A stretch of 20,000 nt of DNA from an uncultured virus (IMG/VR IMGVR_UViG_3300033121_001780) (IMGVR_UViG_3300033121_001780), one strand, 5' to 3'. Counted from the first letter of the stretch, positions 2,997 to 18,429 are shown. A program made the numbers and translations. The notes: generated by a model from the sequence alone, not told the origin.

Positions 2997-2999
2997 CTA

Positions 3000-5900
3000 T
3001 TATTTCGCTATTGTATTATAGGTTTTTGGCTTTGCTCCGAATGTAACTTTAGCTCTGTTTAGAGTAAATTTAACAGTGAAGGTGAAAGGTCTATTTTGAT
3101 TTTCGTCCTCAACAAAGAATCTAAGCTTCTTAATGTGCTTAACGGTCTGTGAAACCTTATTAAGATCAATGTATTCATAATCTTTTCCAGCTTGTGTATT
3201 ATCAAGAGCGTTCATCTTGAAGTAAATGTGTATGGGTATAATAATAGCATTTTCATCGCCACCCTTGACAGACCTAATTTTATCCTCATTGGTCTCAACT
3301 AAGTTTTGTAGATCAGGGGTAACCGGATGAACTGTTGATAGCAATTTGGTAGTGGATCCAACGCTAACAACTGGATCAATCCATTTTGTAGAATCTAGAA
3401 GAGAATTATTACTAGACACGAAAGCCATTGCTAAATTTTCAGAATATCCTACATTGTATTCAACCAGCCCAAGAACATTTGTTATTGAATTACTATTCAG
3501 TGATGTAAAGCTATTACCAATGTTTTCAGATAGCTTTGATAGTTCAGTTTGTGTTACAGTGTCATAATTAACAGACCAAACGAACATGTTATCTAAATGT
3601 GTTCTAGAAGATCCAGACACATCTGTAAATAGCAACTCATCCTGATTATTCACCCAGAATGTCTGAGGCGCAGATGGGCTATAAATAGCTGTATTGGAAA
3701 GATATTGCCTATTGGAAAGAAGACCCAAATCCGAATCAATAGATTTGTTCTTAACTTTTAAGATGAAATCCTTAATAACATAAATATTATTAGCAAATAC
3801 CCTTCCGCTAGGAACTCCAGAACCAGTAAATGGATCTAAATATTCCTCACACTCAATATTAAATTCGGTTTCCGAATTATTACCGATTGTAAATTCTTGA
3901 TTGTTTCTAATTATGATAATTTCAATTTCACCCTTAGCTCTAGAAATTTTCTCTTCTAAAGACTTAACCCTATCTTCTAATTTTTTAAGATGTTGGAGCA
4001 AATCCAAAACAACGCCATTTTCATCTTTGAATCCGGATAGAATTGATTCTGCAGTGTGATAAAATGACTTATTATTTAATATTATAGTTTCGGATAAATG
4101 ATCATCTAATCCACGAGCTGTTAACTCACTGTCCACTTTGACCTTAACTTCCTCCCTAGAGGCCTCTTCAAGAATAAATTGATTATCCAGTAGAACATTG
4201 TTCAAATCATCTGGAAAATCAATTGAAATAACATCACTCCACTCGGATTCAACAGGAGATTCTGGCCAACCAACTTCAGAGATAGATTTAACTCTTAATT
4301 CTACTCTCTCATTTGGACTTATGGCAATATCAATTTGATTTATATTTGGAGTCTCAGCACTTTCCAAATCTTCAATTTCCCATGTATACGCAAGAGTTTC
4401 TAAATTGTAATCTCTTTTTCTTGCATCTGTTTTGAATTCATTCCAATTTGAGAAAGCTGCGGTCTTTTTTTCTTTCTTGTTATTAGATAATTTAAATGTT
4501 TCTACAGAAGGCTCTCGACCATCTTTAGAAATGTATCTATATTGAACTCTAAATTGAACAACCTCTTGTGGAAGGGTCCCTCTTTTAGCAACAGGCTCCG
4601 GAATATCCCAGAATCCTCTAAGTCTATATTTCGGATCTACTTTTGTTGATGATGATCTACTTAGAGTAAGAATTTCTTGATTTGTTGTTTCCAGCAGTTT
4701 GGATTTAGAGTTCTTCTTTTTACTTAGTTCATCTACCTCAATTTCGAATTGTTTTTTCTGAGACTCAGAAGTAAATCTAGTCGCCTTTAATTTCTTATTT
4801 CTACTTTCTATGGCTTCTTGTATTTGAGAAATTTCTGATTTAAGAGAAACTGTATAATTATGTTTCGTCTTCATCAAATTAGAATCAGGATTATCTGTAA
4901 GATGCTTATTTATTTGAACAACCTTAAAATTATCAGAGCTCATAAGAGGAATATTTGGTTGACCAGCTAGCCTATTAGGAATCTTCTTAGTAACTTGATC
5001 CTGTAGAAATTCACCATAATCATAAACAAAATCAATGTAAAATTGATCCATTGTAGTTCCATTATCGGCTCTCAAATCATTGGTAAAAAATCCAGTCCCC
5101 CCTGACCAATTTTTAGATATTAAATTGGAATCAGCATTCATTGGTTTGACAAAGACCACGTTCCTTTCTCCATATCCAATGCTTATCCTAGCTCTCTTTC
5201 TATATACTAATGGTGAATAAATCTTAAGAGTCCCTACTCCGACAGGAATAGGTTGCAGTCCCTCCACTCTCTCCAATCGTAATCTAGGATTTGATTCTGT
5301 GTTTGAAATTTCAACAATTTTATACCTTGTTGAAGAATTTTGAAGATTGGGAATTAATTCACTTCCAATGGCAAGTTGTCGAAGTTCTCTGGTGTCATTT
5401 ATAATGTAATCTAATGTATTAACATGATACCAGAGCTTTCTATTGAGAGCATCTTCCTCAATTTTAATAACATTAAAAACTCCGTCATATAAAACAGCAT
5501 TTGGCTCCAAATCAAACATTTGCTCATCATATTTAGGATTCAAAGGATCAACAATTCCTGTGGTTGTTTGGTACCAATTTTCAAATTCTTGAATGTCTAT
5601 TCCACTAATTCCTCTATATAGACTATTAAAGCTATCAAGGGCAGATTGGCCTAGTGTGGTCAATGTTCCATCGGGATTACTAGCAAAATCAACAATATAT
5701 CTTCTAGATAGAATTTTCCTTACATTATCCTCTACTTTATCTCTTAAATCCAATTCTACAAATAAACTTGGATTCAACATGCTCTCGAAAAACCAATTAA
5801 CTTGAGATTTGAATTGTGATACTATTCCGATATCATTAATGGAATTTGGCTCCTTATTAAGATCGACTGTTATAACCTTCTTAAATTTATTAGTAGATGA

Positions 5901-6161
5901 TGTTTGAATTAGAGCCCCACCAGAGTCAATATTATAAAGTGAATTAAGAGAATTATTAAGCCTCTCAATTTCTGATTTCAGATATGTAAAAGATGGTAAA
6001 TTATAGGTCTTTATAACACCATCCATATCAAAAATTCTAACCTCGACCGATGGTTCCTGTGTCGTGGATAAAGAGTTTATTTTGGATAATATTTCTAATA
6101 TATTTTTGTTATATCCCACAACTTGATCGGCAACAACGGGAAAGGAACTTTTAATAGGCAT
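3000..6161 (-). CDS. Large hypothetical protein (1053 aa), putative virion structural protein with coiled-coil segments and an Fn3-like beta-sandwich
   Basis: Long ORF with coiled-coil-like stretches (SLKSEISQIQEAIESRNKKLK; LKKLEDRVKSLEEKISRAK) and an Fn3-like ending (VELRVKSISEVGWP...ESEWSDVISI). Preceded by TAATATATA. The function is inferred. Confidence 0.7.
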   Translation of the reverse strand: MPIKSSFPVVADQVVGYNKNILEILSKINSLSTTQEPSVEVRIFDMDGVIKTYNLPSFTYLKSEIERLNNSLNSLYNIDSGGALIQTSSTNKFKKVITVDLNKEPNSINDIGIVSQFKSQVNWFFESMLNPSLFVELDLRDKVEDNVRKILSRRYIVDFASNPDGTLTTLGQSALDSFNSLYRGISGIDIQEFENWYQTTTGIVDPLNPKYDEQMFDLEPNAVLYDGVFNVIKIEEDALNRKLWYHVNTLDYIINDTRELRQLAIGSELIPNLQNSSTRYKIVEISNTESNPRLRLERVEGLQPIPVGVGTLKIYSPLVYRKRARISIGYGERNVVFVKPMNADSNLISKNWSGGTGFFTNDLRADNGTTMDQFYIDFVYDYGEFLQDQVTKKIPNRLAGQPNIPLMSSDNFKVVQINKHLTDNPDSNLMKTKHNYTVSLKSEISQIQEAIESRNKKLKATRFTSESQKKQFEIEVDELSKKKNSKSKLLETTNQEILTLSRSSSTKVDPKYRLRGFWDIPEPVAKRGTLPQEVVQFRVQYRYISKDGREPSVETFKLSNNKKEKKTAAFSNWNEFKTDARKRDYNLETLAYTWEIEDLESAETPNINQIDIAISPNERVELRVKSISEVGWPESPVESEWSDVISIDFPDDLNNVLLDNQFILEEASREEVKVKVDSELTARGLDDHLSETIILNNKSFYHTAESILSGFKDENGVVLDLLQHLKKLEDRVKSLEEKISRAKGEIEIIIIRNNQEFTIGNNSETEFNIECEEYLDPFTGSGVPSGRVFANNIYVIKDFILKVKNKSIDSDLGLLSNRQYLSNTAIYSPSAPQTFWVNNQDELLFTDVSGSSRTHLDNMFVWSVNYDTVTQTELSKLSENIGNSFTSLNSNSITNVLGLVEYNVGYSENLAMAFVSSNNSLLDSTKWIDPVVSVGSTTKLLSTVHPVTPDLQNLVETNEDKIRSVKGGDENAIIIPIHIYFKMNALDNTQAGKDYEYIDLNKVSQTVKHIKKLRFFVEDENQNRPFTFTVKFTLNRAKVTFGAKPKTYNTIAK

Positions 6162-6181
6162 CTATACAGATTTTATTTTCT

Positions 6182-6190
6182 TATATATTA
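6182..6190 (-). promoter_or_regulatory. Putative phage (late-type) promoter motif TAATATATA
   Basis: Lies about 20 nt upstream of the 6161 ATG. Similar ATATATA motifs precede the ATGs at 6279, 10807 and 12295. Confidence 0.45.
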
Positions 6191-6192
6191 TT

Positions 6193-6227
6193 TTGGATTT
6201 TTCCTGTCACAATTATGAAAAATCCAA
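6193..6227. repeat. 11-bp perfect inverted repeat (TTGGATTTTTC-N13-GAAAAATCCAA) in the divergent intergenic region
   Basis: Arms at 6193-6203 and 6217-6227, read directly from the sequence. Confidence 0.75.
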
Positions 6228-6278
6228 TAATTTCCAGTATTGGTGGGGATTTCCTGATTTTTGACCAATATATACTAT

Positions 6279-6701
6279 ATGTTACTTAAATTGATAAAAA
6301 CCCTTGCTGTGTTTGTGTTTTTAATGCTTTCTATAACCTCTTTTTCACAGTCTGTTGTTTTTGGTAATATAATAAAGGAAAATCCAAAAGATACAATTGA
6401 AGGAAATCTTGTTGTATATAAGCAAATTGATGATTCTACATACATTTTTAAAGAAAAAAGGTTCAGAAACCAATCTATGGTATCTTTGGATCCTGGAGAA
6501 TATGTTTTCGCTTATTATTTTTCCAATTCCTCTTTCATTGAGAAAGTGAGTATCCATGATGATGAATCTGTTATAATAATGAATATTTTAGAAACTCCAA
6601 CATCCATGTCCGAGTTTAAATTTTCGAAAGTTATCTTTCTTTCGTCAGAAATGATTGAATTAGCTGTACAAAGTCGTCGATATGTTTATATGGAGTTCTG
6701 A
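6279..6701 (+). CDS. Secreted/periplasmic hypothetical protein with a Sec signal peptide; possible carboxypeptidase-regulatory-like beta-sandwich
   Basis: Likely start is ATG 6279 (the track uses TTG 6261). MLLKLIKTLAVFVFLMLSITSFS|Q is an SPI signal with +1 Gln, typical of Bacteroidota. Confidence 0.65.
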   Translation: MLLKLIKTLAVFVFLMLSITSFSQSVVFGNIIKENPKDTIEGNLVVYKQIDDSTYIFKEKRFRNQSMVSLDPGEYVFAYYFSNSSFIEKVSIHDDESVIIMNILETPTSMSEFKFSKVIFLSSEMIELAVQSRRYVYMEF

Positions 6702-6734
6702 TTTGGATATTTGATGGGTTTGTATTTATATTTG
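6702..6734 (+). promoter_or_regulatory. Bacteroidota-type housekeeping promoter (-33 TTTG, -7 TATATTTG)
   Basis: TTTG at 6702-6705, a 21-nt spacer, TATATTTG at 6727-6734, then the ligase ATG at 6740. Confidence 0.65.
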
Positions 6735-6739
6735 TCTTT

Positions 6740-8587
6740 ATGATTGAAAAACTGAAAGAGACGATAATCAAAGCAAATATTGCTTACAGAGAGGGAAATC
6801 CAATAATGTCAGATTCAGAATATGATCTTCTAATAGAAGAGTTATCAATGCTTTCTCCGGATGATGATCTTGTATCCAAGATCGGAATATCTCCCAAGGA
6901 TGAGTCCCGAAAGGCCAAGCTACCAATTGAGATGGCCTCTATGAACAAAATCAAATCCCTAGAAGATCTTCTAAATTGGGCACGACTAAAGAATATATCA
7001 ATAGATTCGGAAATAGTCATCACCCCAAAATATGATGGAATTTCATTATGCAATGATGAAATGATGAGTCACGCATTTACTCGGGGGGATGGAGTCTTTG
7101 GACAAAAATCTAATGATCATTATCGACAAATTGGAAATAAATTAATAGGACAAAATCTGTTCCAATTTACATATGGAGAGGTTATAATGTCAAAATCAAC
7201 ATTTACTTCGAAATATTCAGGAGAATTTGCGAATCCAAGAAATTTAGTAGCTGGTCTTCTAAATGCAAAAGAAATTTCACCAATTTTAAAAGACTGCAAT
7301 TACATAAAGTATGGTGGAATAGTATTCGACAAATTCAAAAATAAGATAAAAACAAAAAGTGAATTACTCTATCAACTTAATTCTTGCCAAGAAATAAAAG
7401 TCCCATTTAAAGTTGAGACTATAAATAATTTAAGTGAAGAAACATTCATTGAACTATTCAAAGAATGGTCAAAAGAATATGAAATTGATGGATTAATAGT
7501 TGAGATAAATGATTTATATCTCCAAAATAAACTTGGTAGAGAAAATTCTAGCAATAATCCAGTGTGGGCAAGAGCATTCAAGCATCCAAGTTTTGAACAG
7601 TCAGCTACTACCGAAATCACAGGAATATCTTGGAACATTTCCAAACAAGGATATTTAAAGCCGACTCTCCATGTGAATCCAATTAAATTGGATGGCGTTA
7701 CAGTATCAAATGTAACCGGCAATAATGCTCGATTTGTAAAAGACATGGGGCTAGGAATAGGAGCAAAAGTCGTTGTAAAGAGAAGCGGAATGGTAATTCC
7801 AATAATTGCCGATGTTATACAAGGAGTAGAGTTTCAAATGCCAAATGTTTCCAATATTGATTGGAATGATAATGGTGTTGAATTAATGACTCTGAATGAA
7901 ACAGATGACCAGAGATTAAAAAAAATAATTGCTTTCTTTGGAATTCTGGAATCTGATAATGTTTCCGAGGGTGTAATCACCCAACTTTGGGAAGCAGGAT
8001 TTAGAACAATAAAAGATATTCTGAATCTAAAAATAGATGATTTCCAAAAGATCGATAGATTCGGAAAAAGGAAATCCCAAATAGTTTATAATTCCATTCA
8101 GAAATCCATAAATGGTGTAAGTCTATCAAAACTACAACATGCTACTGGAATTTTTAATGGACTGGGAAGCAAAAAACTAGTTCTATTAGAACATTTCAAA
8201 TCGAAACCAACGATTGAAGAGGTTATGCAAATCGAGGGATTTGCAGAGATCTCAGCAAAAATATACATTGATAATTGGGACGTATTTTTTGAATTTATCA
8301 AGGATATTCCAATTAAGATTCAAGAAAAAATAGAAATTGAAAAAACTGGAAATGATTTAGAGGGATTTCAATTTGTTTTCACTGGAATAAGACTACCCGA
8401 ATACGAAAAAATCATAATTGCAAATGGTGGAAAAATTGGATCAGGGGTTTCTAAATCAACGACACATTTAATTATTAAAAAGAAGGGAAGTGGATCATCC
8501 AAAGAAAAAAAGGCTATAGATCTTGGAATTAAGATATTAGAAGTAAAGGATTTAGAAGAAATTATGGTGCAACTGCATCATAGATGA
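6740..8587 (+). CDS. ligA: NAD-dependent DNA ligase
   Basis: Domain Ia (AYREGNPIMSDSEYDLL), adenylation motif KYDG, TRGDG, ANPRN, EIDGLIV, OB fold (VVVKRSGMVIP), HhH repeats and a C-terminal BRCT (FVFTG...GGKIGSGVSKSTTHLI). Confidence 0.95.
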   Translation: MIEKLKETIIKANIAYREGNPIMSDSEYDLLIEELSMLSPDDDLVSKIGISPKDESRKAKLPIEMASMNKIKSLEDLLNWARLKNISIDSEIVITPKYDGISLCNDEMMSHAFTRGDGVFGQKSNDHYRQIGNKLIGQNLFQFTYGEVIMSKSTFTSKYSGEFANPRNLVAGLLNAKEISPILKDCNYIKYGGIVFDKFKNKIKTKSELLYQLNSCQEIKVPFKVETINNLSEETFIELFKEWSKEYEIDGLIVEINDLYLQNKLGRENSSNNPVWARAFKHPSFEQSATTEITGISWNISKQGYLKPTLHVNPIKLDGVTVSNVTGNNARFVKDMGLGIGAKVVVKRSGMVIPIIADVIQGVEFQMPNVSNIDWNDNGVELMTLNETDDQRLKKIIAFFGILESDNVSEGVITQLWEAGFRTIKDILNLKIDDFQKIDRFGKRKSQIVYNSIQKSINGVSLSKLQHATGIFNGLGSKKLVLLEHFKSKPTIEEVMQIEGFAEISAKIYIDNWDVFFEFIKDIPIKIQEKIEIEKTGNDLEGFQFVFTGIRLPEYEKIIIANGGKIGSGVSKSTTHLIIKKKGSGSSKEKKAIDLGIKILEVKDLEEIMVQLHHR

Positions 8588-8591
8588 AAGC

Positions 8592-9095
8592 TTGATAGAG
8601 GTTATTTGTACTACTAAAAATTGCTTAAAAATAAAATTTCTTGAAACTCTACCACGAATTCTCAATGGTGAAAATTCAATATGGATAACAACATTTCAAA
8701 AGGAATTGAATATCATGATAATGAATTTTTTACTTGGTATAATAATTGGATTTGGATTGCTGCATGGATTCTATTTTATTAGAAACAAAATATATAGAGA
8801 GGTACGTAAGGGAGTATTCACTACTAGACTGGTTGATAATACTGATCAAACAAACTTCATTGTGAATTACGAAATAGAAGAGATAGCAAGATCCAATAAA
8901 AAATCCAAAATTAAAATCTTGTCCTTTAATTCCGAAATTTCAAAATACAATGCTGCCAATTGGAAAGATGCAATTACAAATTTCTACGATAATGCATGGA
9001 TTAAAACCTCAGAAATCGATTGGATAAAATATACAAACGATCCAAACGATCCCAAGTTTATTAGGGATAAAAAAATAAACCAAATACTAAAATGA
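8592..9095 (+). CDS. Hypothetical membrane-anchored protein (start uncertain: TTG 8592 or ATG 8715/8721); ends in RDKKINQILK
   Basis: Hydrophobic segment FLLGIIIGFGLLHGFYFI follows ATG 8721. ATGA overlap with the next gene. Confidence 0.7.
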   Translation: MIEVICTTKNCLKIKFLETLPRILNGENSIWITTFQKELNIMIMNFLLGIIIGFGLLHGFYFIRNKIYREVRKGVFTTRLVDNTDQTNFIVNYEIEEIARSNKKSKIKILSFNSEISKYNAANWKDAITNFYDNAWIKTSEIDWIKYTNDPNDPKFIRDKKINQILK

Positions 9096-9400
9096 TGCAG
9101 AAAGACTATTGGAATGAAAAAGAGAAATATCTACAAAAAATATCAGATCTAGAAAATAGGATCCAACAACAGAAAAATAACCAAATTTCTGTTGAAATCG
9201 GATCATATTATCTAGTATCATTTAATGATAAAATAGAAATGGTTCGAGTATCAGCTCTAACTAAAAAATGCGTGCTGTTTGAATTTTTACAAACAGAAAA
9301 GGATCCACAATGGTTTCTGACGTATAAAAATTATACTATAATTGAAGAATTATCAACAGAATTTATCAGAGACTTCAAAATCGAGCAAATATCCGAATGA
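9092..9400 (+). CDS. Hypothetical protein with an N-terminal coiled coil; ends in RDFKIEQISE
   Basis: ATGA overlaps on both sides indicate translational coupling. Confidence 0.75.
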   Translation: MMQKDYWNEKEKYLQKISDLENRIQQQKNNQISVEIGSYYLVSFNDKIEMVRVSALTKKCVLFEFLQTEKDPQWFLTYKNYTIIEELSTEFIRDFKIEQISE

Positions 9401-9732
9401 TGTTTTGGTGTGTTATAGGCCTTCATAAATGGCAGTATCATCATAAAATGGTTCCATATATTTTACCTGGAAATAGAACATATAATGTTGGAACACATTT
9501 TCGATGCTGTAAAGAATGTGACAAGGAACAAAGAAGAACAAACAGGCCAATAAGTGTAGGAAATGAATGGCTGACTATTAAGTCAGGAAATTCCTTCGAT
9601 AAATTAATGATAAAATTTGCAAAATGGTACCAATCAATGAATTCTTCAATACAAGAATCTAAAAATCAACCAATTCAAAACGAAAACACCGAAATCAAAA
9701 CACAGAAAAATCAACCAAGAAAAATAACCTAA
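9397..9732 (+). CDS. Small putative Zn-binding phage protein (DUF1660-like CxxGxHxW...CxxC)
   Basis: WCVIGLHKW...RCCKEC motif; ATGA overlap with the upstream gene. Confidence 0.6.
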   Translation: MMFWCVIGLHKWQYHHKMVPYILPGNRTYNVGTHFRCCKECDKEQRRTNRPISVGNEWLTIKSGNSFDKLMIKFAKWYQSMNSSIQESKNQPIQNENTEIKTQKNQPRKIT

Positions 9733-9761
9733 ACTTAACCAAATTATTCTGTATAATAAGA

Positions 9762-10100
9762 ATGGACTCTGTAATTAAAATATTTGGCGCCAAGTCTTGG
9801 CATGATACAGTTTCCATAGTAGGAAATAAAGAAGCTCTAATAAGATTTCGAGATCTTATTCAGGATGCTATAACAAAAGGATTTTCAGATGGTGAGTTTC
9901 TAGAATCAGATGGTGAAGGATACAACATAGAAATTAAATTACATGATTGGGGATTCTATTCCGATGGATGGAACAATTTACCAGTTCATTATTCTGATGA
10001 TCTTTCATCGGAGAAAAATTGGAAATATTGGGAAAATTTACATGATTTGATGACAAGTGGGAGGCGAGATAGTAAGATTGAAAAATTGGAAGGAGAGTAA
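9762..10100 (+). CDS. Hypothetical protein; ends in RDSKIEKLEGE
   Basis: 112-aa ORF in the co-directional block, with TATAAT just upstream (9752-9757). Confidence 0.75.
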   Translation: MDSVIKIFGAKSWHDTVSIVGNKEALIRFRDLIQDAITKGFSDGEFLESDGEGYNIEIKLHDWGFYSDGWNNLPVHYSDDLSSEKNWKYWENLHDLMTSGRRDSKIEKLEGE

Positions 10101-10161
10101 AATTAAATTAATATATTAGAAAACCATCAATAGAAATATTGAATATAAATAAATCAACGGC

Positions 10162-10764
10162 ATGGAAATAAAATTCGAGAATTTTGCGGAGAAGGAAAAA
10201 GTATTTATAGAAAGAACAGGAAAAAATTTTGATTTCTACTACAAAAAGTATTATCCAAAACTTATCTATTACACAAATAAGATTTGTAATGATACTCAAA
10301 AAGCTGAAGATGTATCAATTGATTCATTTTTAACAGCTTTTGATAAAATTGATATGTATGAGAGTGACAAGTCACAATTCTCAACATGGCTATTTACAAT
10401 AGCTAGAAATCTAGCTCTTCAAGAAAAGAAAATGGATGGCAAATCAATCTCAATGGATGTAGAGATTGATGAAGAGGGAACAACAATGAAAGACTTCATC
10501 CAAGAGGAAGAATCGGAAGACGAGGCTAAATATGAAGCCATAAATAAAAAGGCCCAAATAATGCTTGAGGCGATAGGAAAACTGAAAGAGCCATATAGAA
10601 GAGTTATAGAAATGAGAGAAATTAAGAGAATGCAATATAAAGACATCTCTGAGCAACTTGGAAAAAATCTTTCGACAATAAAAAGTCAAATAAGGAACGG
10701 GCGCGGATTGCTAGTAAAAGCAACAGAAAAAGACTTTGCAAAGATTGATAGTCAATTTTCATAA
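10162..10764 (+). CDS. RNA polymerase sigma factor, sigma-70 ECF type
   Basis: Region 2 (AEDVSIDSFLTAFDKI...FSTWLFTIARN) and region 4 HTH (MQYKDISEQLGKNLSTIKSQIRNGR). Confidence 0.92.
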   Translation: MEIKFENFAEKEKVFIERTGKNFDFYYKKYYPKLIYYTNKICNDTQKAEDVSIDSFLTAFDKIDMYESDKSQFSTWLFTIARNLALQEKKMDGKSISMDVEIDEEGTTMKDFIQEEESEDEAKYEAINKKAQIMLEAIGKLKEPYRRVIEMREIKRMQYKDISEQLGKNLSTIKSQIRNGRGLLVKATEKDFAKIDSQFS

Positions 10765-10806
10765 CCCAAATTAGCAATGGAAGAAGCATAATCTTATATA
10801 TAGATT

Positions 10807-12003
10807 ATGTCAAGAACAAAATTAATCGTCAGAGGATCAAATCCAAAAGAAAGGCTTTTATCCATTATAAGTCAATGCACAAATAGAAATCAGATATGTC
10901 AACACATCAAAAGGTACATCGATATTATTGATTTCTTAAAATCAAGAGTTAAATCAAATTCTGATAAATCTCCAATGGAACTTCTATATCTATATCAACA
11001 AAATATAGAAGTTCCATTGTGCATTTGTGGAAAAGAAAGAATATACCATTGTCAAGGATACAGACCAACATGCGGTGGAAAAGATTGCATAAACATAACT
11101 AGGGAAAATTCAAAAAAGAATTTTTGCCTAAAAACATATGGAGTGGAATTTGTTACACAACTTGACACAATGAAGGATAAGTCAAAGAAAACATGCTTGA
11201 AGAAATATGGGGTTGATAATATAACAAAATTAAAGGAAGTAATACAAAAAAGAAAGCAAAACAATCTTAAAAAATGGGGGGTGACGGATCCAATAATGAT
11301 GCCCGAATTTAGAAGATCTGATGTGATGAGAATACACCATGATAACAAAATACAGAGTGGACTACCCAATAAATATGAATATTTAGGCCATATTGATAAT
11401 GATATGGCAATTGAGTATTATTCTATAAAATGTCCAAAAAATCACATAACAACTATAAGTAAGTCAAATCTAAGTATCAGAAAATCTAAAAATCAAGAAA
11501 TTTGCAATCTTTGTAATGAATATATTGGATCAATGGCAGAGCAAGAAGTTTTTGATTACATAAAAACAATATATTTTGGAAATATAACTAGAAGTGATAG
11601 AAAATTAATCAAACCATTAGAAATAGACATGGTTCTAGAAGATATTAAAATATGCATAGAATTCAATGGGGATTATTGGCATTCAACTAAAATCATTGAT
11701 GACCAATATTATCATATGGATAAATCAAAATCGTGTATATCAAAAGGATTTAGACTATTACAGATAAAAGAAAGAGATTGGTATGAAAAGAAAGACGAAG
11801 TGAAGAATAAAATGAGCCAATTTATAGAAAATCACCCTATTAAAATAGATAAAAATATCTATACGTTGGATTTATCATGGTATGATGATAGATTTCTTAA
11901 AATTGGTAACTGGAAATTAATTGCACAAAATAAACCCATTCTAATAAATGTTGGCCAATATCTCCAGTGGAGTGGCGGAGAGGAGATATATAAGCTATTA
12001 TGA
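10807..12003 (+). CDS. Free-standing putative homing endonuclease: K-[KT]-[YW]-G-V repeats, Zn ribbons and a Vsr/DUF559-like PD-(D/E)xK nuclease domain
   Basis: Repeats KTYGV, KKYGV, KKWGV; Cys motifs CICG, CGGKDC, CPKNH, CNLC; nuclease motif EIDMVLEDIKICIEFNGDYWHS...GFRLLQIKERDW. Confidence 0.75.
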   Translation: MSRTKLIVRGSNPKERLLSIISQCTNRNQICQHIKRYIDIIDFLKSRVKSNSDKSPMELLYLYQQNIEVPLCICGKERIYHCQGYRPTCGGKDCINITRENSKKNFCLKTYGVEFVTQLDTMKDKSKKTCLKKYGVDNITKLKEVIQKRKQNNLKKWGVTDPIMMPEFRRSDVMRIHHDNKIQSGLPNKYEYLGHIDNDMAIEYYSIKCPKNHITTISKSNLSIRKSKNQEICNLCNEYIGSMAEQEVFDYIKTIYFGNITRSDRKLIKPLEIDMVLEDIKICIEFNGDYWHSTKIIDDQYYHMDKSKSCISKGFRLLQIKERDWYEKKDEVKNKMSQFIENHPIKIDKNIYTLDLSWYDDRFLKIGNWKLIAQNKPILINVGQYLQWSGGEEIYKLL

Positions 12004-12278
12004 AAACAACACACAAAATTCAGCTTTTATGGTCATCTTGGGGAGATATATGTGATCTTATCAAATTCAAAAATGGAACAAAAGGATATTATGTAGATGG
12101 CCATGGAAATATAGCTGATGCGTCTACTAATATTATTGGATTTTATTATAATAATGACAATGAAGGTTGGATAATTCAACAAGGTGATTGGATTATAAAA
12201 GATGAATCAGGTAAAATTTCCTATATGACTGATGATCAAATGAAAAGATCAATTCTCTTAGAAAAGTTAAGTATATAA
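12000..12278 (+). CDS. Hypothetical phage protein (GDWIIK motif); ends in RSILLEKLSI
   Basis: ATGA overlap with the endonuclease gene. GDWIIKDESG resembles the GD[WY]II[KR] motif common in small phage proteins. Confidence 0.7.
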   Translation: MKTTHKIQLLWSSWGDICDLIKFKNGTKGYYVDGHGNIADASTNIIGFYYNNDNEGWIIQQGDWIIKDESGKISYMTDDQMKRSILLEKLSI

Positions 12279-12294
12279 TTAATATATACTAGAT

Positions 12295-12612
12295 ATGAAA
12301 GATCTATCATACACTCAAATATTCCCAATAAAAAAGCAAATATCACACGAAGATGCTTTAAGAGAAAAAATAAAATCTAAAATAGTCCAAATAATAATGG
12401 ATGAAAACAAGATATCAGAAAAAGCATTTTCTAGAGTACATGAAATAATTGATTTGACTAGATCTAAATTTACAGATGATATGATGCAATTTTCTATAAG
12501 GGAATATCAGTCAGGTAAAAGGCCTGAATACATTGCTGAAATCTTATATGATGATCATTTCAAAAACCAAATATTAAAAGAATCAAAAATTTCTAAATTC
12601 AAAGACTTCTAA
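12295..12612 (+). CDS. Hypothetical protein; ends in LKESKISKFKDF
   Basis: 105-aa ORF preceded by TAATATATA (12280-12288); TAATG overlap with the next gene. Confidence 0.75.
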   Translation: MKDLSYTQIFPIKKQISHEDALREKIKSKIVQIIMDENKISEKAFSRVHEIIDLTRSKFTDDMMQFSIREYQSGKRPEYIAEILYDDHFKNQILKESKISKFKDF

Positions 12613-12911
12613 TGAATTCTAAAGTCTATAAATACATAGAATCAATCATATTTGATTATATCGAATCTGTTAGTGGTGATTTTTATCCTGATAAAAAATC
12701 ATTTATTGAAAATATCAAGAAGCAATCATTATTATATTACCCACATTTAAGCAATGATAATGATATTAAAATACTATTTACGTGTTTTGGTAATAAAGAG
12801 TTTATGAATATTGCTTTCATAGGACCACTATCAAACTCTAAATATGATATCTTGATTCCTAGAAAGATTATAGATCGGGAGATAAAATTGAACTATTTAT
12901 TAGAATCATAA
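12612..12911 (+). CDS. Hypothetical protein; ends in REIKLNYLLES
   Basis: 99-aa ORF coupled to the upstream gene via TAATG. Confidence 0.7.
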   Translation: MNSKVYKYIESIIFDYIESVSGDFYPDKKSFIENIKKQSLLYYPHLSNDNDIKILFTCFGNKEFMNIAFIGPLSNSKYDILIPRKIIDREIKLNYLLES

Positions 12912-12936
12912 TATAAAAATTAAAATATTCAATAGA

Positions 12937-13248
12937 ATGTCAATAAAAGTAACAGATGCAAATTTCGACGGTATAATAAGTGAGGGAGTTTCAGTAATAG
13001 ATTTTTTCGCTACGTGGTGTGGTCCATGCGCAGCCATGTCTCCAATAATAGATGAAATATCAGAAGAATATCCAGAATTAAAAGTTGGTAAAATGGATGT
13101 GGATGAAAATTCTGCAATTCCAACAAAACTTAAAATCAGAAGTATTCCTACTCTCATCATATATAAGAATGGTGAAGTAGTAGAAAGAAAAACTGGAATA
13201 GTGTCAAAATCACAATTAAAAACAATATTGGATACTCATATCTCATAA
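12937..13248 (+). CDS. trxA: Thioredoxin
   Basis: DFFATWCGPC active site and cis-Pro motif IRSIPTL; 103 aa. Confidence 0.95.
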   Translation: MSIKVTDANFDGIISEGVSVIDFFATWCGPCAAMSPIIDEISEEYPELKVGKMDVDENSAIPTKLKIRSIPTLIIYKNGEVVERKTGIVSKSQLKTILDTHIS

Positions 13249-13874
13249 TGGATATTATAGAAACCATAAACACTGGTAATGTTATATCCATAGGATATAA
13301 CGAAGATTGTGAAGAATATCTATTTTCTGTTCTAGATAGATTATATAATATATCGTATGTTGATTATAAATTACAAAAATTCCATAGAGATAGCTTCATA
13401 ATAAGTGATGAATCATATATGAGAGATACTAAGCTTAATCTCATTATGAATACAAAACACGATAAGGGATATAATATTGTCAATCTTAATAATTTCGAAT
13501 CTGAAGAATCTGAAACAAACAAGGCACAAGAGATAAGGGATTTTATACGATCCGTATCATCGCAAGGATATATGTGGTCAACTCAGGATCTGAAAATCAG
13601 AACTATATTTTTAAGCCAATCATATGAGGGAATCAATGGAGAAACGATAATGAGAGGCGGATCTTCTTTTATCTATTCATCTGATCTAGTCTTAATGATA
13701 TCAGAGAATGAAAAATTCGAAATAGTCAAAGATACTAACTCTCCTTGTAGTGTAGAGCGAAATATGAAAAATTACACAGAGACATCAAAATACCTACATG
13801 ATGATACGATCTCTGATCTATTTACAGTCACTACAACAACAACCATAAGCCACAAAAATAATCCCAAGATATAA
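13248..13874 (+). CDS. Hypothetical protein, possibly a degenerate RecA/DnaB-like fold without Walker A
   Basis: KAQEIRDFIRSV...IFLSQ...MRGGSSFIYSSDLVLMI resembles RecA/DnaB C-terminal motifs. No GxxxxGK[ST] is present. Confidence 0.55.
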   Translation: MDIIETINTGNVISIGYNEDCEEYLFSVLDRLYNISYVDYKLQKFHRDSFIISDESYMRDTKLNLIMNTKHDKGYNIVNLNNFESEESETNKAQEIRDFIRSVSSQGYMWSTQDLKIRTIFLSQSYEGINGETIMRGGSSFIYSSDLVLMISENEKFEIVKDTNSPCSVERNMKNYTETSKYLHDDTISDLFTVTTTTTISHKNNPKI

Positions 13875-13901
13875 GAGAATTTCCAAATGGAGGAATTTTC
13901 G

Positions 13902-13909
13902 TATATTTG
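13902..13909 (+). promoter_or_regulatory. Bacteroidota-type -7 promoter element TATATTTG
   Basis: Sequence TTTCGTATATTTGTGATATG; the ATG at 13914 follows 4 nt after the element, matching the geometry at ligA. Confidence 0.6.
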
Positions 13910-13913
13910 TGAT

Positions 13914-14345
13914 ATGAATATCATAATAAATAAGAAAGCAAGGTTTAATTACGATATTTTAGAAGAATATACCGCCGGTATGATTCTTCTAGGATCAGAA
14001 GTTAAATCTATTATAACTGGTGATATTAACTTTGGAGATGCCTTTGCTTATTTCAAGGATGGAGAACTCTGGATAAAGAATCTTCATATATCAAAATATA
14101 AAGATTCATCATATCAAAATCATGACGAACTTCGAGAAAGAAAGCTACTTCTAACCAAAAATGAAGTCAAAAAAATATCAAGGATGATGGATACAAAGGG
14201 AACAACCCTTATTCCAATCGAACTCTTTACTCTAAGGGGGAAAATAAAACTGAAACTCGGGGTTTGTAAGGGTAAAAAGACGTGGGAAAAGAGATATTCT
14301 ATCAAGAAAAGGGACATTGAGAGAGAATCAAATTTCCGATTTTGA
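13914..14345 (+). CDS. smpB: SsrA(tmRNA)-binding protein SmpB
   Basis: NKKARFNY, AGMILLGSEVKSI, RERKLLL, GTTLIP and GKK..EKR motifs. Start moved to ATG 13914 because the track's 13887 start would include the promoter element. Confidence 0.95.
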   Translation: MNIIINKKARFNYDILEEYTAGMILLGSEVKSIITGDINFGDAFAYFKDGELWIKNLHISKYKDSSYQNHDELRERKLLLTKNEVKKISRMMDTKGTTLIPIELFTLRGKIKLKLGVCKGKKTWEKRYSIKKRDIERESNFRF

Positions 14346-14404
14346 TATATAATATACGATAGTTAAAATGCTTGATACTATTGATCAAAACATAAACAAT
14401 CCAC

Positions 14405-15268
14405 ATGATTTTCTTGCTTCCTAGTGAGCCTTTTGATATCAAAAAGGTTGATTACGAATTTAAATCTGAATTTACATCAATTTCTATATTAGGATATAGA
14501 ATATATCTGTATGAACACGATAGATTTATCTCAACTGGGGAATTCGTCTCAACATTTGACTTCACAAATAATAGTGATTTAGTTATTCTAAGATCTTGGA
14601 TGTTGAAAGCAGATCAATATGATAATCTGTTTAATATATTGAACAGTAAAGGACTTATGATGATAAATACGCCCGAACAATATCTTAATTGTCATTATTA
14701 CCCAAATATTTACGATAAAATAAGAATGCATTCTCCCCAATCTGTTTGGTTCAAGGATCTCTCAGATGAGAACTGCGTCAATATGAGAAAGATGATCGAT
14801 GGGGATGTTATTATAAAAGACTATGTTAAATCCGAAAAAGGATTTGATGATATTTTCTTTCTTGAAAATCAAATTATGAATGAAGAATTGATTAAACGAA
14901 TCCATAAATTTAAGGATTCTAGAGGAAAGCTATTCAACGAAGGAATTGTCTTCAAGAAAAAATTAAATTTAAAGAAATATGGTGATAAAACCAACGAATT
15001 TAGATTGTTTTATTTGTACCACAAATTAATTTCAATAACTCAGAATTCCGATCTTGGATATGGAAACAATCCCTATATTAGCTTCCTAAATCCAATAATC
15101 GAAACCATAGACTCAAATTTCTTTACAATTGATCTAGCAGAATTAGAAGATGGAAAATGGGTAATTTTAGAATGTGGAGATGGGTCTGTTTCTGGGCTTT
15201 CACCACACCAAAATAGTCTATTTTTCTATACAAATTTTGATAAATTACAAAAAACAGCAAAAATATAA
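14405..15268 (+). CDS. ATP-grasp domain protein (R2K-clade / DUF4343-like)
   Basis: IIKDYVKSEK, NEFRLF and FFTIDLAELEDGKWVILECGDGSVSGL motifs. Confidence 0.75.
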   Translation: MIFLLPSEPFDIKKVDYEFKSEFTSISILGYRIYLYEHDRFISTGEFVSTFDFTNNSDLVILRSWMLKADQYDNLFNILNSKGLMMINTPEQYLNCHYYPNIYDKIRMHSPQSVWFKDLSDENCVNMRKMIDGDVIIKDYVKSEKGFDDIFFLENQIMNEELIKRIHKFKDSRGKLFNEGIVFKKKLNLKKYGDKTNEFRLFYLYHKLISITQNSDLGYGNNPYISFLNPIIETIDSNFFTIDLAELEDGKWVILECGDGSVSGLSPHQNSLFFYTNFDKLQKTAKI

Positions 15269-15285
15269 CCAACAATATATTATTA

Positions 15286-15807
15286 ATGAGGAAAATCCAA
15301 AAAGTGCGTAAGCACAAATTGAATGGCGAAGTTCGATTCCCACAAGTTAGGGTAACAGGTGATTTTGGTGGTAAAATAATGTCATCATATGAGGCCTCAA
15401 AACTTTCTGAAGAAATGGGTCTTGATCTTATTCTCATATCCGAAAGTGCTATACCGCCTGTAGTTAAAATTGAGAACTATAATAAATTCCTCTATGATCT
15501 AGAAAAGAGAGAAAAGGAAATTAAGAAAGGTCAAAAAAGGTCAGAAGTCAAGGAACTAACATTTTCTCCAAATATAGCAGATCATGATTTAGGAGTTAAG
15601 TCAAAAAAGGCTCTTGAATTCTTAAAGAATGGAATGAAAGTGAAGTGTACTCTTTCCATGAAGGGCAGAGAAGCTGCGATGTTCGAAAGAGGACAAATCG
15701 TTATGCTTAAATTTGCTACCTTAGTTGAAGAATCCGGAGTCCCGGAAGATATGCCGAAGAGGGATGGGAATAAGTGGTTTATGGTTCTTAAACCTAACAA
15801 GAAATGA
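15286..15807 (+). CDS. infC: Translation initiation factor IF-3
   Basis: N-domain (LNGEVRFPQVRV, GLDLILIS...PPVVKI..YNKFLY), lysine-rich linker, and C-domain (VKELTFSPNIADHDL, GMKVK..MKGRE). Confidence 0.95.
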   Translation: MRKIQKVRKHKLNGEVRFPQVRVTGDFGGKIMSSYEASKLSEEMGLDLILISESAIPPVVKIENYNKFLYDLEKREKEIKKGQKRSEVKELTFSPNIADHDLGVKSKKALEFLKNGMKVKCTLSMKGREAAMFERGQIVMLKFATLVEESGVPEDMPKRDGNKWFMVLKPNKK

Positions 15808-16571
15808 AAGTTTGTGTAGCAATTTCATCACATAGTCCTGCCTTTTTCACAAAAATGACAGTGGGGACTCTTCTCCGTGAGGTAAAAAATCATGATCTGA
15901 ATATCCATGTTGGATATCATTCGAATCTATCAGATTATACGCAAGATTTAAGTCTATTTGAGCTACATAAAATATGCCAACTTCATGCAGTTGATGAGAT
16001 TGATTGGTATCAACACAACGATGATATTTATCGATATTCAAAAATGCATGCTAAAAATCTTGAGAATATCTTTAAAAATATTAGGTATTATGATTTTGAT
16101 TATCTAGCCATATTAGATAATGATCTGTATATAAAGGGGGACTTCGTTTCCAATATAATAGAGAAATTTCCGGGAAGCGATTTAATAGGTTCCTATTTCG
16201 ATGATAAATTCGAGAGACACACCCTGATAGACAATTGGGGAAATCCTGTCACGTTCGCTCCTAAATGCTCGGTTTGGAACATTTTCATTTCTAGAAAAAT
16301 GTTCGACAAAATCATGGAAGACACAAGTGTAATTTGGCCAAAATTCATAGACGGAACATTTTATGACACTTTATCAGAAATTTTAAAAATATCTGAAGAG
16401 TGGGGGATGAATAGATCCATCGTAACGACGGAAGAAATGTCTACAATGATTCATCATTTTTTCCATAGCTCGTTCAACTATGGAATCGGAATGAATAAAA
16501 AGCCAATTGATGGCCCTCAAGAAATTTGGACAAGGGAATTTCCAAACGGTATTAATGATATCATAAAATGA
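15804..16571 (+). CDS. Putative glycosyltransferase (GT-A fold)
   Basis: N-terminal beta strand MKVCVAI, DxD motif in DFDYLAILDNDLYI, and a late HHF motif. ATGA overlap with infC. Confidence 0.65.
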   Translation: MKVCVAISSHSPAFFTKMTVGTLLREVKNHDLNIHVGYHSNLSDYTQDLSLFELHKICQLHAVDEIDWYQHNDDIYRYSKMHAKNLENIFKNIRYYDFDYLAILDNDLYIKGDFVSNIIEKFPGSDLIGSYFDDKFERHTLIDNWGNPVTFAPKCSVWNIFISRKMFDKIMEDTSVIWPKFIDGTFYDTLSEILKISEEWGMNRSIVTTEEMSTMIHHFFHSSFNYGIGMNKKPIDGPQEIWTREFPNGINDIIK

Positions 16572-17041
16572 AGAAAATATTTCTATTTCTAAGCATCTTA
16601 GTAGGCCTTTTCAGCTGTTCAATAGAAGAAGATCAATTTCTATCAACACCACTTATATTGGTTTTCCCTGTTGGAAAATCATGGCAAGTTCAAGATATTT
16701 CTATCTCTGATCCTGTCACATTTGTTTCTGATACAGATACCATAACTTTTGCCGGCAACTTAACATACTTATTCAATGAATCAGATAATCTGTTCTTTTA
16801 TAATCCAGTTGGATTAGATCCAAATGCTGGAAGAATTGAAACATATTATATATGGGGAACATGGAAAAGTGAAGTTACATCATCTAACAATGAGTTTCTA
16901 ACTCTTAATTTTCCAACAAATGGTGGTGACTTTCACAAATATTCATTCTTGAATGGAATGTGGAAAATAACAGATAAATGGTCAAACAAAATTGAGATGG
17001 AAGATGGCAATAAGCATTTAACAATCAAAGTTAATGACTGA
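16568..17041 (+). CDS. Lipoprotein (SPII signal), lipocalin-like beta-barrel
   Basis: Lipobox MKKIFLFLSILVGLFS|C followed by acidic SIEED; GKSW, GTWK and GMWKI motifs are typical of Bacteroidota lipocalin-like proteins. Confidence 0.7.
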   Translation: MKKIFLFLSILVGLFSCSIEEDQFLSTPLILVFPVGKSWQVQDISISDPVTFVSDTDTITFAGNLTYLFNESDNLFFYNPVGLDPNAGRIETYYIWGTWKSEVTSSNNEFLTLNFPTNGGDFHKYSFLNGMWKITDKWSNKIEMEDGNKHLTIKVND

Positions 17042-17492
17042 AATTATAGAAAAAGGTGATTTTGTCGTTGGACTCCAATCAGTAAAAAATCTGGGTGTTC
17101 CATTTGGAACTGCGGATATTATTGAGGGAAATATTTACTTTGTAAGAGATACAGTGGATTGTTCATGTGGTAGATATTTAGATGTTGGGCTCTTTACAAC
17201 GAAAGAAAAAAATATTACTATATGCTGCAGGAAAATTCATTATGAATCCGAAGATGCAAAAAAGCTTTTTACTCTGGATGTAGAGAAAAATACCATTACT
17301 CCAACAGAATATTCCAAAAATAATTGGAAGATATCTCAAAAATTCCTACAAAGAGAAAAAGTTCTTCTATCAGAAGGAAAGGTAGATATATACTCACCAA
17401 TTGTTTATGCATTTTCAGAGTATTTTAAAAAAGTGGATATATCACAAGAATCACGAGACAGAAAAATTAATATAATAAATGAAAATCTTTGA
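17034..17492 (+). CDS. Hypothetical protein with possible Zn ligands (CSC...CC); ends in RDRKINIINENL
   Basis: 152-aa ORF overlapping both neighbours. Confidence 0.7.
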   Translation: MTEIIEKGDFVVGLQSVKNLGVPFGTADIIEGNIYFVRDTVDCSCGRYLDVGLFTTKEKNITICCRKIHYESEDAKKLFTLDVEKNTITPTEYSKNNWKISQKFLQREKVLLSEGKVDIYSPIVYAFSEYFKKVDISQESRDRKINIINENL

Positions 17493-18429
17493 CTACTCAG
17501 ATGTAATTCTAGTTCCTCGGAAGGGAATTGTCAATTCTAGGAGCGAATGTGATACTTCAGTTAAGTTAGGAAAATTTACATTCAAAATACCGGTAGTTCC
17601 ATCCAATATGGAATCGATAGTTGATGAAAATCTATGCGTAAAATTAGCATCAAAAGGATATTTCTATATAATGCATAGATTTGGAACTGACAATAAGGAA
17701 TTTATTAAAAAGATGAGAAGTCTTAACTTATTTACATCTATATCAATAGGGGTGAATGAGGACTCGTATTCCCTCATTGCAGATTTGATAGAAAGTGATC
17801 TAATGCCAGATTTTATCACAATTGATATTGCCCACGGTCATTGTGAAAAAATGGAAAAAATGATTAAATTCATCAAGACATTTGGACAAGATTCACTTTT
17901 AATATGTGGAAACATATGTACAAGTGAAGCCGCGTCAGATCTGGAAAATTGGGGAGCTGATTGCTTAAAAATCGGAATAGCTCCAGGAGAAGTTTGCACA
18001 ACATATCAGAATACTTCTTTTGGTAGCAGGGGACATCAAGCCTCAACAGTTTTAGAAATTTCAAAATGTTCCAAATTGCCGCTAATAGCTGATGGTGGAA
18101 TAAGGAAAAATGGAGATATAAATGTAGCATTATCAATGGGGGCCTCCATGATCATGATCGGTGGCATGTTGTCTGGATTTGAAGATTCTCCGGGTAATGT
18201 TATATATCATAATGGAATACCTCATAAGGAATTTTGGGGATCAGCATCTCAATATCAATCATCTAAAACAAATAGAATAGAAGGAACAAAAGTTCTAAAG
18301 GTTCTAAAAAATAGAAGCCTCATAGATGAATTAATTTCTTTAGAAGAATCCATACAAAGCGGAATATCCTATGCTGGAGGTAAAAACATATTGGCTTTTA
18401 AAGGAATTAAATATCATGTTAAGAACTAA
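17479..18429 (+). CDS. guaC: GMP reductase (GuaC-type, IMPDH/GMPR family, no CBS domains)
   Basis: FDYSDVILVP, PVVPSNM, YFYIMHRF, ITIDIAHGH, catalytic loop GIAPGEVCTT, IADGGI and SGISYAGG. Confidence 0.88.
   Translation: MKIFDYSDVILVPRKGIVNSRSECDTSVKLGKFTFKIPVVPSNMESIVDENLCVKLASKGYFYIMHRFGTDNKEFIKKMRSLNLFTSISIGVNEDSYSLIADLIESDLMPDFITIDIAHGHCEKMEKMIKFIKTFGQDSLLICGNICTSEAASDLENWGADCLKIGIAPGEVCTTYQNTSFGSRGHQASTVLEISKCSKLPLIADGGIRKNGDINVALSMGASMIMIGGMLSGFEDSPGNVIYHNGIPHKEFWGSASQYQSSKTNRIEGTKVLKVLKNRSLIDELISLEESIQSGISYAGGKNILAFKGIKYHVKN

Follow-up and report, generated by a model that had tools for sequence, protein, structure and literature searches.

A short C-terminal peptide shared by unrelated small proteins in one lineage of huge phages

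Introduction

The XB tail of E. coli SspB is the docking tail of a Clp adaptor, and the capsid targeting sequence (CTS) of T-even phages is an N-terminal peptide. Sliding-clamp-binding motifs (the T4 gp45 ligands and the PIP box) have an h-x-x-h-h spacing, are mostly C-terminal, and bring many clients to one hub. Encapsulin cargo-loading and microcompartment peptides are short terminal, partly amphipathic helices that serve few enzymes encoded beside the shell genes, and the F-box and SOCS-box libraries of eukaryotes and their viruses combine many substrate-binding bodies with one box that plugs into a degradation machine. Here, we analyzed a 20,000-nucleotide stretch of DNA from an uncultured virus (IMGVR_UViG_3300033121_001780; the whole stretch is called the window), in which small proteins with different bodies end in the motif R-[DE]-x-K-[IL]-x-x-[IL] (hereafter the tag). 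A preliminary description of the window had proposed that this peptide is a modular address label.

According to the accessible text of PMC6873191, Gp53 of phage SPO1 is an early host-takeover protein able to act as a ClpCP adaptor. SspB and Gp53 resemble the tagged proteins in joining a body to a short handle, and a short C-terminal segment apart from the folded body was also modeled here, for one protein. The likeness concerns architecture; each of those systems has one adaptor, whereas more than 100 unrelated bodies per genome carry the tag, and the cognate N-domain of the ATPase is missing in the phage ClpC of three tagged relatives (G001, LR745206.1, and LR756504.1). The T-even CTS, as far as the available part of PMC3012670 describes it, is likewise one short peptide on many unrelated, variable, and probably counter-defense proteins. 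However, the CTS loads virions, whereas the tag is C-terminal, apparently non-late, present on membrane proteins, and exclusive of the CTS-like peptide of the same genomes.

Results

The preliminary description had listed five C-terminal copies of the motif, a degenerate sixth, and one internal copy, and all seven were found to translate exactly at the listed coordinates (Arg codons AGG, AGA, CGA, CGG, and CGA). A six-frame scan of the whole window gave six matches to R-[DE]-x-K-[IL]-x-x-[IL], all on the + strand, of which five sit 10 to 12 residues before a stop codon and one (13422) is internal. The strict motif ends 5 of the 22 complete open reading frames (ORFs) of the window; among 20,000 composition-matched draws, one match occurred in 49 and two in none. 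Because the motif had been drawn from these same ORFs, an independent test was placed in relatives. The enrichment at C-termini over shuffled sequences, which had been proposed earlier as a check, was found there: a strict regular expression matched 65 of 679 ORF ends in the IMG/VR record G001 and 102 of 1017 in LR745206.1, compared with shuffle means of 0.08 and 0.32.

A tag profile was then trained on G001 and LR745206.1, with a score of 8 or more as the cut-off for counts, and the five window tails scored 10.8 to 24.6. Tag 1 (9063..9095, Arg at −10, score 24.6) ends a 126-amino acid (aa) protein (8715..9095) that, judging from sequence, model, and family alignment, consists of an N-terminal membrane anchor, a beta-rich domain of unmatched fold, and the tag. 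Its start had been placed at TTG 8592; ATG 8715 is likelier, giving 126 aa, with an identical database record and orthologues of 122 to 138 aa. Tag 2 (9368..9400, Arg at −10, score 12.9) belongs to a 102-aa orphan ORF (9092..9400) that overlaps the stop of the preceding gene, tag 3 (10065..10100, Arg at −11, score 10.8) to a 112-aa orphan ORF (9762..10100), tag 4 (12876-12911, Arg at −11, score 15.3) to a 99-aa orphan (12612..12911), and tag 5 (17454-17492, Arg at −12, score 17.1) to a 152-aa orphan (17034..17492). The degenerate sixth tail (12246-12278), on a 92-aa protein with a weak PHROG 1810 match (12000..12278), scored 6.5 and is probably real; among control windows, 2 of 593 and 4 of 895 reached a score of 6. 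The internal copy (13422-13445, score 17.2) lies in a 208-aa protein with a weak UvsX-like PHROG match (13248..13874). Pfam gave no match for any tagged window protein, and PHROG matches, both weak, were limited to these two.

The untagged 1053-aa conserved protein of the window (3000..6161, − strand) was used for placement. The counterparts in LR745206.1 (635 kb) and LR756502.1 (642 kb) were 63% and 62% identical to it; identity was about 40% for the records of 735 and 636 kb and stayed <28% for Lak and pT24-like phages. In the accessible part of PMC7162821, the 634-735-kb genomes and Lak make up the Mahaphage clade, with Bacteroidetes as predicted hosts. By this protein comparison, the window is from a huge phage of the Mahaphage clade. 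Eight genomes were processed in pieces of 20-50 kb, and ORFs were predicted by a simple caller that includes spurious short ORFs and loses genes cut at piece ends; the tagged fractions are therefore approximate. At a profile score of 8 or more, the tag was counted on 116 of 679 ORFs in G001, 178 of 1017 in LR745206.1, and 105 of 975 in LR756504.1 (636 kb), where it takes the variant form R-K-x-[KIR]-I-E-x-L. The untagged large phages gave 5/1089 (LR756501.1), 3/691 (LR756500.1), 1/721 (Lak-A1), 0/315 (pT24), and 4/579 (G016), and control windows shifted 25 residues inward gave 0 to 4 matches. A stop-anchored DNA pattern confirmed the tag in LR756502.1 (40 matches, control 1) and in further records. 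Only 2 to 4 tagged proteins per genome exceeded 250 aa. Within one lineage of huge phages, R-[DEN]-x-K-[IL]-[NKDE]-x-[IL]-[LGIF] is thus shown to be a module at the peptide level that ends about one-sixth of ORFs; nearly all of the carriers are small and mutually unrelated, and the tag itself lies on the cytoplasmic side (see below).

The tagged genes cluster near record ends (0-40 kb and 600-636 kb in LR756504.1, 0-40 kb and 600-635 kb in LR745206.1, and 440-476 kb in G001); 36 of 70 ORFs are tagged in the last bin of G001, and the end clusters are often overlapping runs, like host-takeover regions. A narrow DNA form of the tag, ending in Gly-Ile-stop, matched viral contigs at 36 stretches, and a form only a little broader was absent from 185,579 prokaryote genomes; both results are for one sub-variant of the tag and cover no host proteome.

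The tag behaves as a unit at the peptide level. As the preliminary description had held, it is no DNA repeat (the tag DNA of the five window tags is alike at just 13 to 18 of 27 bases), and its bodies are unrelated rather than full-length paralogues (best pairwise BLAST E 0.15 for the five tagged window ORFs plus two weaker cases). In the three tagged genomes, all six Arg codons are used in tags at about genomic frequency, and codon use follows the genome (AGA share 72/72/77% at the tag versus 78/77/80% genome-wide). The tagged bodies formed 115 clusters from 116, 177 from 178, and 85 from 105. Of the orthologue pairs between G001 and LR745206.1, 51 carried the tag on both members and 281 on neither member, whereas 4 pairs were discordant, all of them borderline or position-shifted; in the 51 pairs, identity at K3, I4, I7, and L8 was 61 to 67%, compared with 47% for the bodies. 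The family of the 126-aa window protein (eight relatives, about 30% identity) has 5 of its 11 invariant columns in the tag. Pfam matches among tagged proteins numbered about 5/116 (over the cut-off), 3 of the 148 scanned out of 178, and 0 of the 102 scanned out of 105, and 64/116, 118/178, and 101/105 tagged bodies were orphans with no match in the other genomes analyzed.

A DNA-level element, paralogy, or compositional chance could be proposed instead, and the AT-rich, K/I/N-rich proteomes and a codon skew at Ile +7 (ATA 63-73% versus 33-52%) would fit this. However, the near-genomic use of six Arg codons, the unrelated bodies, the similarly AT-rich relatives, which score 0 to 5, and the dissimilarity to tmRNA tags have already largely refuted this explanation, and it is almost certainly wrong. 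Two other candidate origins were rejected, namely a tmRNA tag (no resemblance to any predicted tmRNA tag, the predictions being relaxed and mostly doubtful) and a copy of a core protein's tail (SSB, ClpC, portal, or capsid).

In an AlphaFold2 model of one protein, the 126-aa window protein, the tag forms a separate helix (residues 113-125) after a linker, modeled with low confidence (pLDDT 56 to 66). Proline was present in 6 of 399 tags, compared with 104 of 393 body 12-mers, and hydrophobicity peaked at +4, +7, and +8, on the same face as R0 and K3. The Arg lies 8 to 17 residues from the C-terminus, mostly 9 to 11, and the residue that closes the protein is not fixed (I 83, L 80, K 66, and E 42 of 399), with Gly-Ile ending 45 of the 399 tags. 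By the positive-inside rule, the 26 membrane-anchored tagged proteins comprise 22 C-in, 2 C-out, and 2 ties, versus 63/64/24 (p 8e-5). We consider it very probable that the tag is a two-to-three-turn amphipathic helix, with R0, K3, I4, I7, and L8 along a single face, by which the tagged proteins dock into one groove of a single partner in the cytoplasm, and that tagged genes are early or middle and non-virion. The Arg might alternatively be a site of modification or cleavage (phosphorylation, ADP-ribosylation, or conjugation). This would agree with the Arg being the sole invariant residue of the tag, which is partly a matter of construction, the profile having been seeded on it; the hydrophobic face, however, is also strongly kept, and a search that covered arginine kinase, and no other modifying enzymes, gave no match to that family in 5/5 records. 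Such a role for the Arg is very unlikely.

Internal copies of the motif occurred at 17.9 and 18.2 per 100,000 residues in G001 and LR745206.1, compared with 1.4 to 4.4 in untagged phages, an enrichment of at least fourfold, and some proteins carry two copies. The motif had been described as missing from the C-termini of the recognizable enzymes, and the named enzymes of the window do lack the tag; in relatives, however, DinG-like and UvsW-like helicases and a nucleotidyltransferase contain it internally. The C-terminal end is thus preferred and not required. The internal copies are kept in orthologous helicases, and at the site of the DinG-like copy three relatives have an alignment gap. With sliding-clamp motifs the tag shares the spacing, the C-terminal bias, the many clients, and the internal copies in helicases, whereas it needs Arg/Lys and not aromatics. 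No replisome or late-transcription client that was scanned, namely the N-half of PolB, the clamp loader, RNase H, DnaB, SSB, sigma, and the ligase, had a tag score above 2.4; the clamp itself and the other half of PolB were not identified.

The enriched internal copies, their retention in orthologous helicases, and the proteins with two copies favor a non-proteolytic hub or self-assembly, in which the helix would dock on a scaffold (a phage factory, a condensate, or a ribosome- or nucleoid-associated protein) or tags would pair, so that early proteins are concentrated and the ligands of their bodies sequestered. The hydrophobic half of the tag also resembles helix 1 of DUF6576 (PF20216; I-[DN]-x-I-L-D), which, like the SHOCT-like modules, is a short C-terminal unit and is present 1 to 7 times per genome in the clade; in one phage protein the start of DUF6576 is a tag-like helix. 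However, the tag lacks the second helix of this domain (G-x-x-S-L-T, following I-x-x-I-L-D-K-I), most DUF6576 copies lack the Arg (6 of the 7 listed), and DUF6576 is also found in the untagged 735-kb phage. PF20216 matched no C-terminally tagged protein among the 116, 148, and 102 scanned and matched one internal-tag protein. Moreover, no scaffold candidate was found, and the invariant Arg and the replacement of the tag by an unrelated acidic-aromatic one (see below) are easier to reconcile with a dedicated receptor than with pairing of generic coiled coils. We regard a hub or self-assembly as a serious but tentative alternative to a proteolytic partner. From the resemblance in sequence, DUF6576 may be the ancestor of the tag.

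DUF6576 was observed in G001, LR745206.1, LR756502.1, and others, mostly as a C-terminal module on different proteins, forming a second, smaller shared-tail system; a protein database search with a DUF6576 protein found no relative among longer proteins. The tags also differ from the UVR motif (PF02151) in lacking its first helix ([YF]-E-x-A-A before L-R-D), and the one UVR match in a tagged protein is in the body, a copy of the ClpC M-domain.

The tagged genomes contain an N-terminal peptide class, M-x-x-[IL]-K-x-[FY]-x-x-F-x-x-E, on 31, 36, and 38 ORFs, which we take to resemble the T4 CTS. Its overlap with the tag was 1 versus 17 expected (p 2e-7). When only genes that have an upstream region to themselves were counted, an ATATATA-type motif, presumed to have a late role, was found ahead of 54 of 64 genes of the N-terminal class but ahead of just 7 of 147 tagged genes, with 383 of 1142 for the remaining genes. 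In G001 and LR745206.1, 41 of 106 tagged genes had the element TAnnTTTG, presumably of the Bacteroidota promoter type, in front of them, compared with 93 of 677 others. These upstream regions suggest that tagged genes are expressed early or in the middle of infection. Because the tag avoids both the N-terminal CTS-like peptide and the late-type promoter, it is probably no virion signal. A virion-loading signal, whether a C-terminal counterpart of the T4 CTS or a mimic of the scaffold's coat-binding helix, would have a precedent in scaffolds, some of which bind coat protein via a C-terminal Arg/Lys helix. T-even internal proteins, too, are diverse defense proteins that share just a targeting peptide, according to the accessible part of PMC3012670. 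In addition to the two exclusions above, however, 26 tagged proteins are membrane-anchored, and the capsid, the portal, and the protease/scaffold of the 636-kb phage have no tag. The virion sorting offered in the preliminary description is thus disfavored, and we rate it as highly improbable.

Sister lineages without the R-type tag were found to have other shared peptides. A motif-free search of ORF ends in LR756501.1 (W03, 735 kb) identified D-P-Y-G-E-E-x-W on 89-90 ORFs, 37 of them C-terminal with the Asp mostly at −10. This peptide is C-terminal, internal, or directly after the N-terminal virion-type peptide (e.g. L090:5891-6127, L083:11314-11850, and L145:12409-12918), and it was present on 5 of 12 capsid/protease/portal fragments versus 76 of 928 (p 0.002). 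Unlike the R-type tag, it is also carried by proteins of the N-terminal virion-type class, which shows that the two systems differ. A related form, D-P-W-G-E-[ED], was seen in L284/L283. In LR756500.1 (W05), C-terminal N-A-D-D-F-G-[FL] was found on about 14 ORFs, mostly of the virion-type N-terminal class (e.g. L172:11706-17016). Since unrelated labels mark the same kinds of cargo, function rather than sequence is suggested to be conserved among the tags.

The Clp ATPase encoded by G001, LR745206.1, and LR756504.1 lacks the N-domain and retains an IGF-like loop; these three genomes also have in common ClpP, ClpS, and a 135-aa protein with a C-terminal UVR motif. Clp_N had no match in the three ATPases, and a separately encoded Clp N-domain was rejected. 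LR756501.1, by comparison, has an N-domain-bearing Clp ATPase without the IGF-like loop and no ClpP or ClpS match. At the 74 classifiable ClpC loci (6 of 80 were cut off), tags were found on 36 of 674 small ORFs near N-domain-less ClpC and on 4 of 385 near full-length ClpC. At least two pattern matches were present in 13 of 22 records with short ClpC and 0 of 9 with full-length ClpC, and the UVR protein was full-length in 13 of 34 records, none with full-length ClpC. These associations make the Clp link a lead. In G001, ClpC without N-domain, ClpP, ClpS, and the UVR protein were located at L041:4643-6775, L049:754-1512, L029:370-654, and L036:16916-17323, and the gene just upstream of ClpC is tagged in several genomes.

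Presence/absence profiling left about 30 candidate genes, none of which was singled out as the reader of the tag. The UVR protein gave no fold match (best Z 4.9), and the ESM Atlas returned viral UVR clusters alone. A complex prediction with G001 ClpC (residues 40-690), the UVR protein, and a 32-residue tagged tail scored 0.00 twice, with no controls folded, and is uninformative either way.

The shared ClpC, ClpP, ClpS, and conserved UVR protein would also be compatible with an adaptor-read degron, by which the tag marks early proteins for timed destruction, e.g. for clearing capsid-like decoys before head assembly or for recycling amino acids. The early/middle signature of the tagged genes agrees with it, and capsid fragments could be dominant-negative late in infection. 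In contrast to ssrA-type degrons, which have fixed last residues at a free carboxylate, the tag places its Arg 8 to 17 residues from the end and leaves the last residues free; internal copies are conserved, and the clade would have to destroy a sixth of its gene products. A degron read by an adaptor is therefore unlikely, and the classical free-C-terminus degron offered in the preliminary description is disfavored by the variable tails and the internal copies.

Some tagged bodies have a recognizable origin: of 404, 6 are degenerate pieces of the major capsid protein, 2 derive from the prohead protease/scaffold, and 1 from the ClpC M-domain. Capsid-family matches were found in 0 of 779 untagged small orphans, and reversed bodies gave one match. 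With deeper profiles, 10 of 19 head-protein fragments were C-terminally tagged and 3 more internally, compared with 396 of 2313 small ORFs (17%; p 4e-4). A 240-aa capsid-derived protein, present at 16 of 80 capsid loci with 13 distinct tails, was tagged in 16/16. The accessible text of PMC11312562 describes capsid proteins and the prohead protease as triggers of CapRel, Lit, Thoeris, and CBASS. Because these proteins are known immune triggers, a bait role of the tagged fragments is plausible. Conserved degenerate capsid, prohead protease, and portal fragments are common in these phages, tagged or not (G001 L030:9912-10661; LR745206.1 L061:7176-7907, L063:15010-15237, and L074:435-686; untagged in W03, W05, and G016), and they are candidate decoys or assembly inhibitors.

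Around the tagged genes of the window, a TAnnTTTG element (6727..6734, + strand, by the assumed consensus) lies upstream of ligA and the coupled tagged genes 8715-9400, and these may form one operon behind it. An exception to the general promoter rule is the tagged gene 12612-12911, because the gene to which it is coupled follows a late-type motif; the 105-aa gene at 12295-12612, also behind such a motif, has a C-terminal end that resembles the N-terminal virion-type peptide (I-x-K-F-x-x-F). SmpB is encoded at 13887-14345 (Pfam E 1e-49), with a possible true start at ATG 13914 behind TAnnTTTG at 13902; it is also present in 4 of 5 large relatives, while tmRNA prediction in the tagged genomes gave nothing convincing. 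Other neighbors are an untagged relative of a DUF1660 protein that bears the tag in G001 (9397-9732), a DUF7487/REase homing-endonuclease-like gene (10807-12003), an R2K-clade ATP-grasp protein (14405-15268), and a predicted lipoprotein (16568-17041). For the 126-aa window protein, Foldseek against the PDB gave no fold match and protein database searches gave the window protein alone; the ESM Atlas gave no match for the tag region. A 40-kb contig, which may be the source sample, covers window 1-17685 without differences. A single study with three RNA libraries from wastewater contributed short contigs that match the window here and there, including 9455-9878 and 10065-10504; these are no indicator of transcription or timing.

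Discussion

The address label proposed in the preliminary description stands as far as the peptide is concerned, which is peptide-level, proteome-wide, codon-neutral, carried by non-paralogous bodies, helical, and kept in orthologues; its docking partner we still infer. No description of the tag was found in the searchable literature, including the accessible text of PMC7162821, PMC7824862, PMC13282480, and PMC13728456; supplements and subscription papers lay outside this scope, and a mention there is possible. Provisionally, and judged by sequence, the tag would be an undescribed address label outside every known family tested. Encapsulin and microcompartment peptides are similar in being short terminal helices, and the Gly-Ile endings recall them, but the tag labels a sixth of all proteins, some of them in the membrane.

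The reading that we put forward, with a rough probability of 0.35, is that the partner is a Clp-type unfoldase/protease and that the tagged proteins are an exchangeable library for substrate recognition or bait. The tag would plug into the phage N-domain-less ClpC with ClpP, into an adaptor of it, or into host ClpC. Each body would then be a binder or bait and the tag the handle for the machine, giving many exchangeable substrate-recognition modules that could remodel the host proteome and remove immune sensors; bodies derived from capsid, protease, or ClpC may bait the proteins that bind those phage proteins. In its fullest form, which is more doubtful, this would be a programmable platform for proteolysis or sequestration, with more than 100 small binder genes per genome, including degenerate copies of the phage's immune-triggering head proteins, joined to one handle for a phage-tuned Clp machine; the N-domain of ClpC would have been replaced by exchangeable modules, and sister lineages would have reinvented the handle (D-P-Y-G-E-E-x-W and possibly N-A-D-D-F-G-F).

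Several observations weigh against a Clp-type partner. The complete genome G016 (373 kb) has short ClpC and ClpP and yet only 4/579 weak tag scores, and 9 of 22 short-ClpC records have 0 or 1 pattern matches. These records were found through ClpC, and most of the tagged ones form one clade of the ClpC tree (a quick tree with unsure long branches), so that the link may reflect shared ancestry alone, and about 25 other genes have the same presence pattern as the Clp genes. Adaptor tails usually bind the N-domain, which this phage ClpC lacks. The ATPase of the 636-kb relative is also without the M-domain motif, the 735-kb phage with another tag has no ClpP match, and internal copies in helicases fit an adaptor role poorly. 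Recognizable baits make up just 9 of 404 tagged bodies (about 2-3%), the window contributes none, and head fragments can also lack a tag, as do 7 of 12 in the 735-kb phage and others in LR756500.1 and G016. The TAnnTTTG enrichment, moreover, fails in LR756504.1 (1 of 41 tagged genes versus 91 of 465).

If the reader proves to be an ordinary Clp domain, the tag becomes a very large-scale variant of adaptor tails. If the platform described above is true, it would be the prokaryotic-virus counterpart of F-box adaptor libraries, an analogy with F-box and SOCS-box proteins that involves neither homology nor a ubiquitin system and depends on the Clp reading being correct. As a handle of ten residues by which a bacterial protease or scaffold can be addressed, the tag would also be a tool. 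From the capsid and protease fragments that carry it, a bait-based counter-defense is a possibility; each body would serve as a probe for the host protein it binds, and the identity of the reader would give hundreds of orphan genes of these phages a common function.

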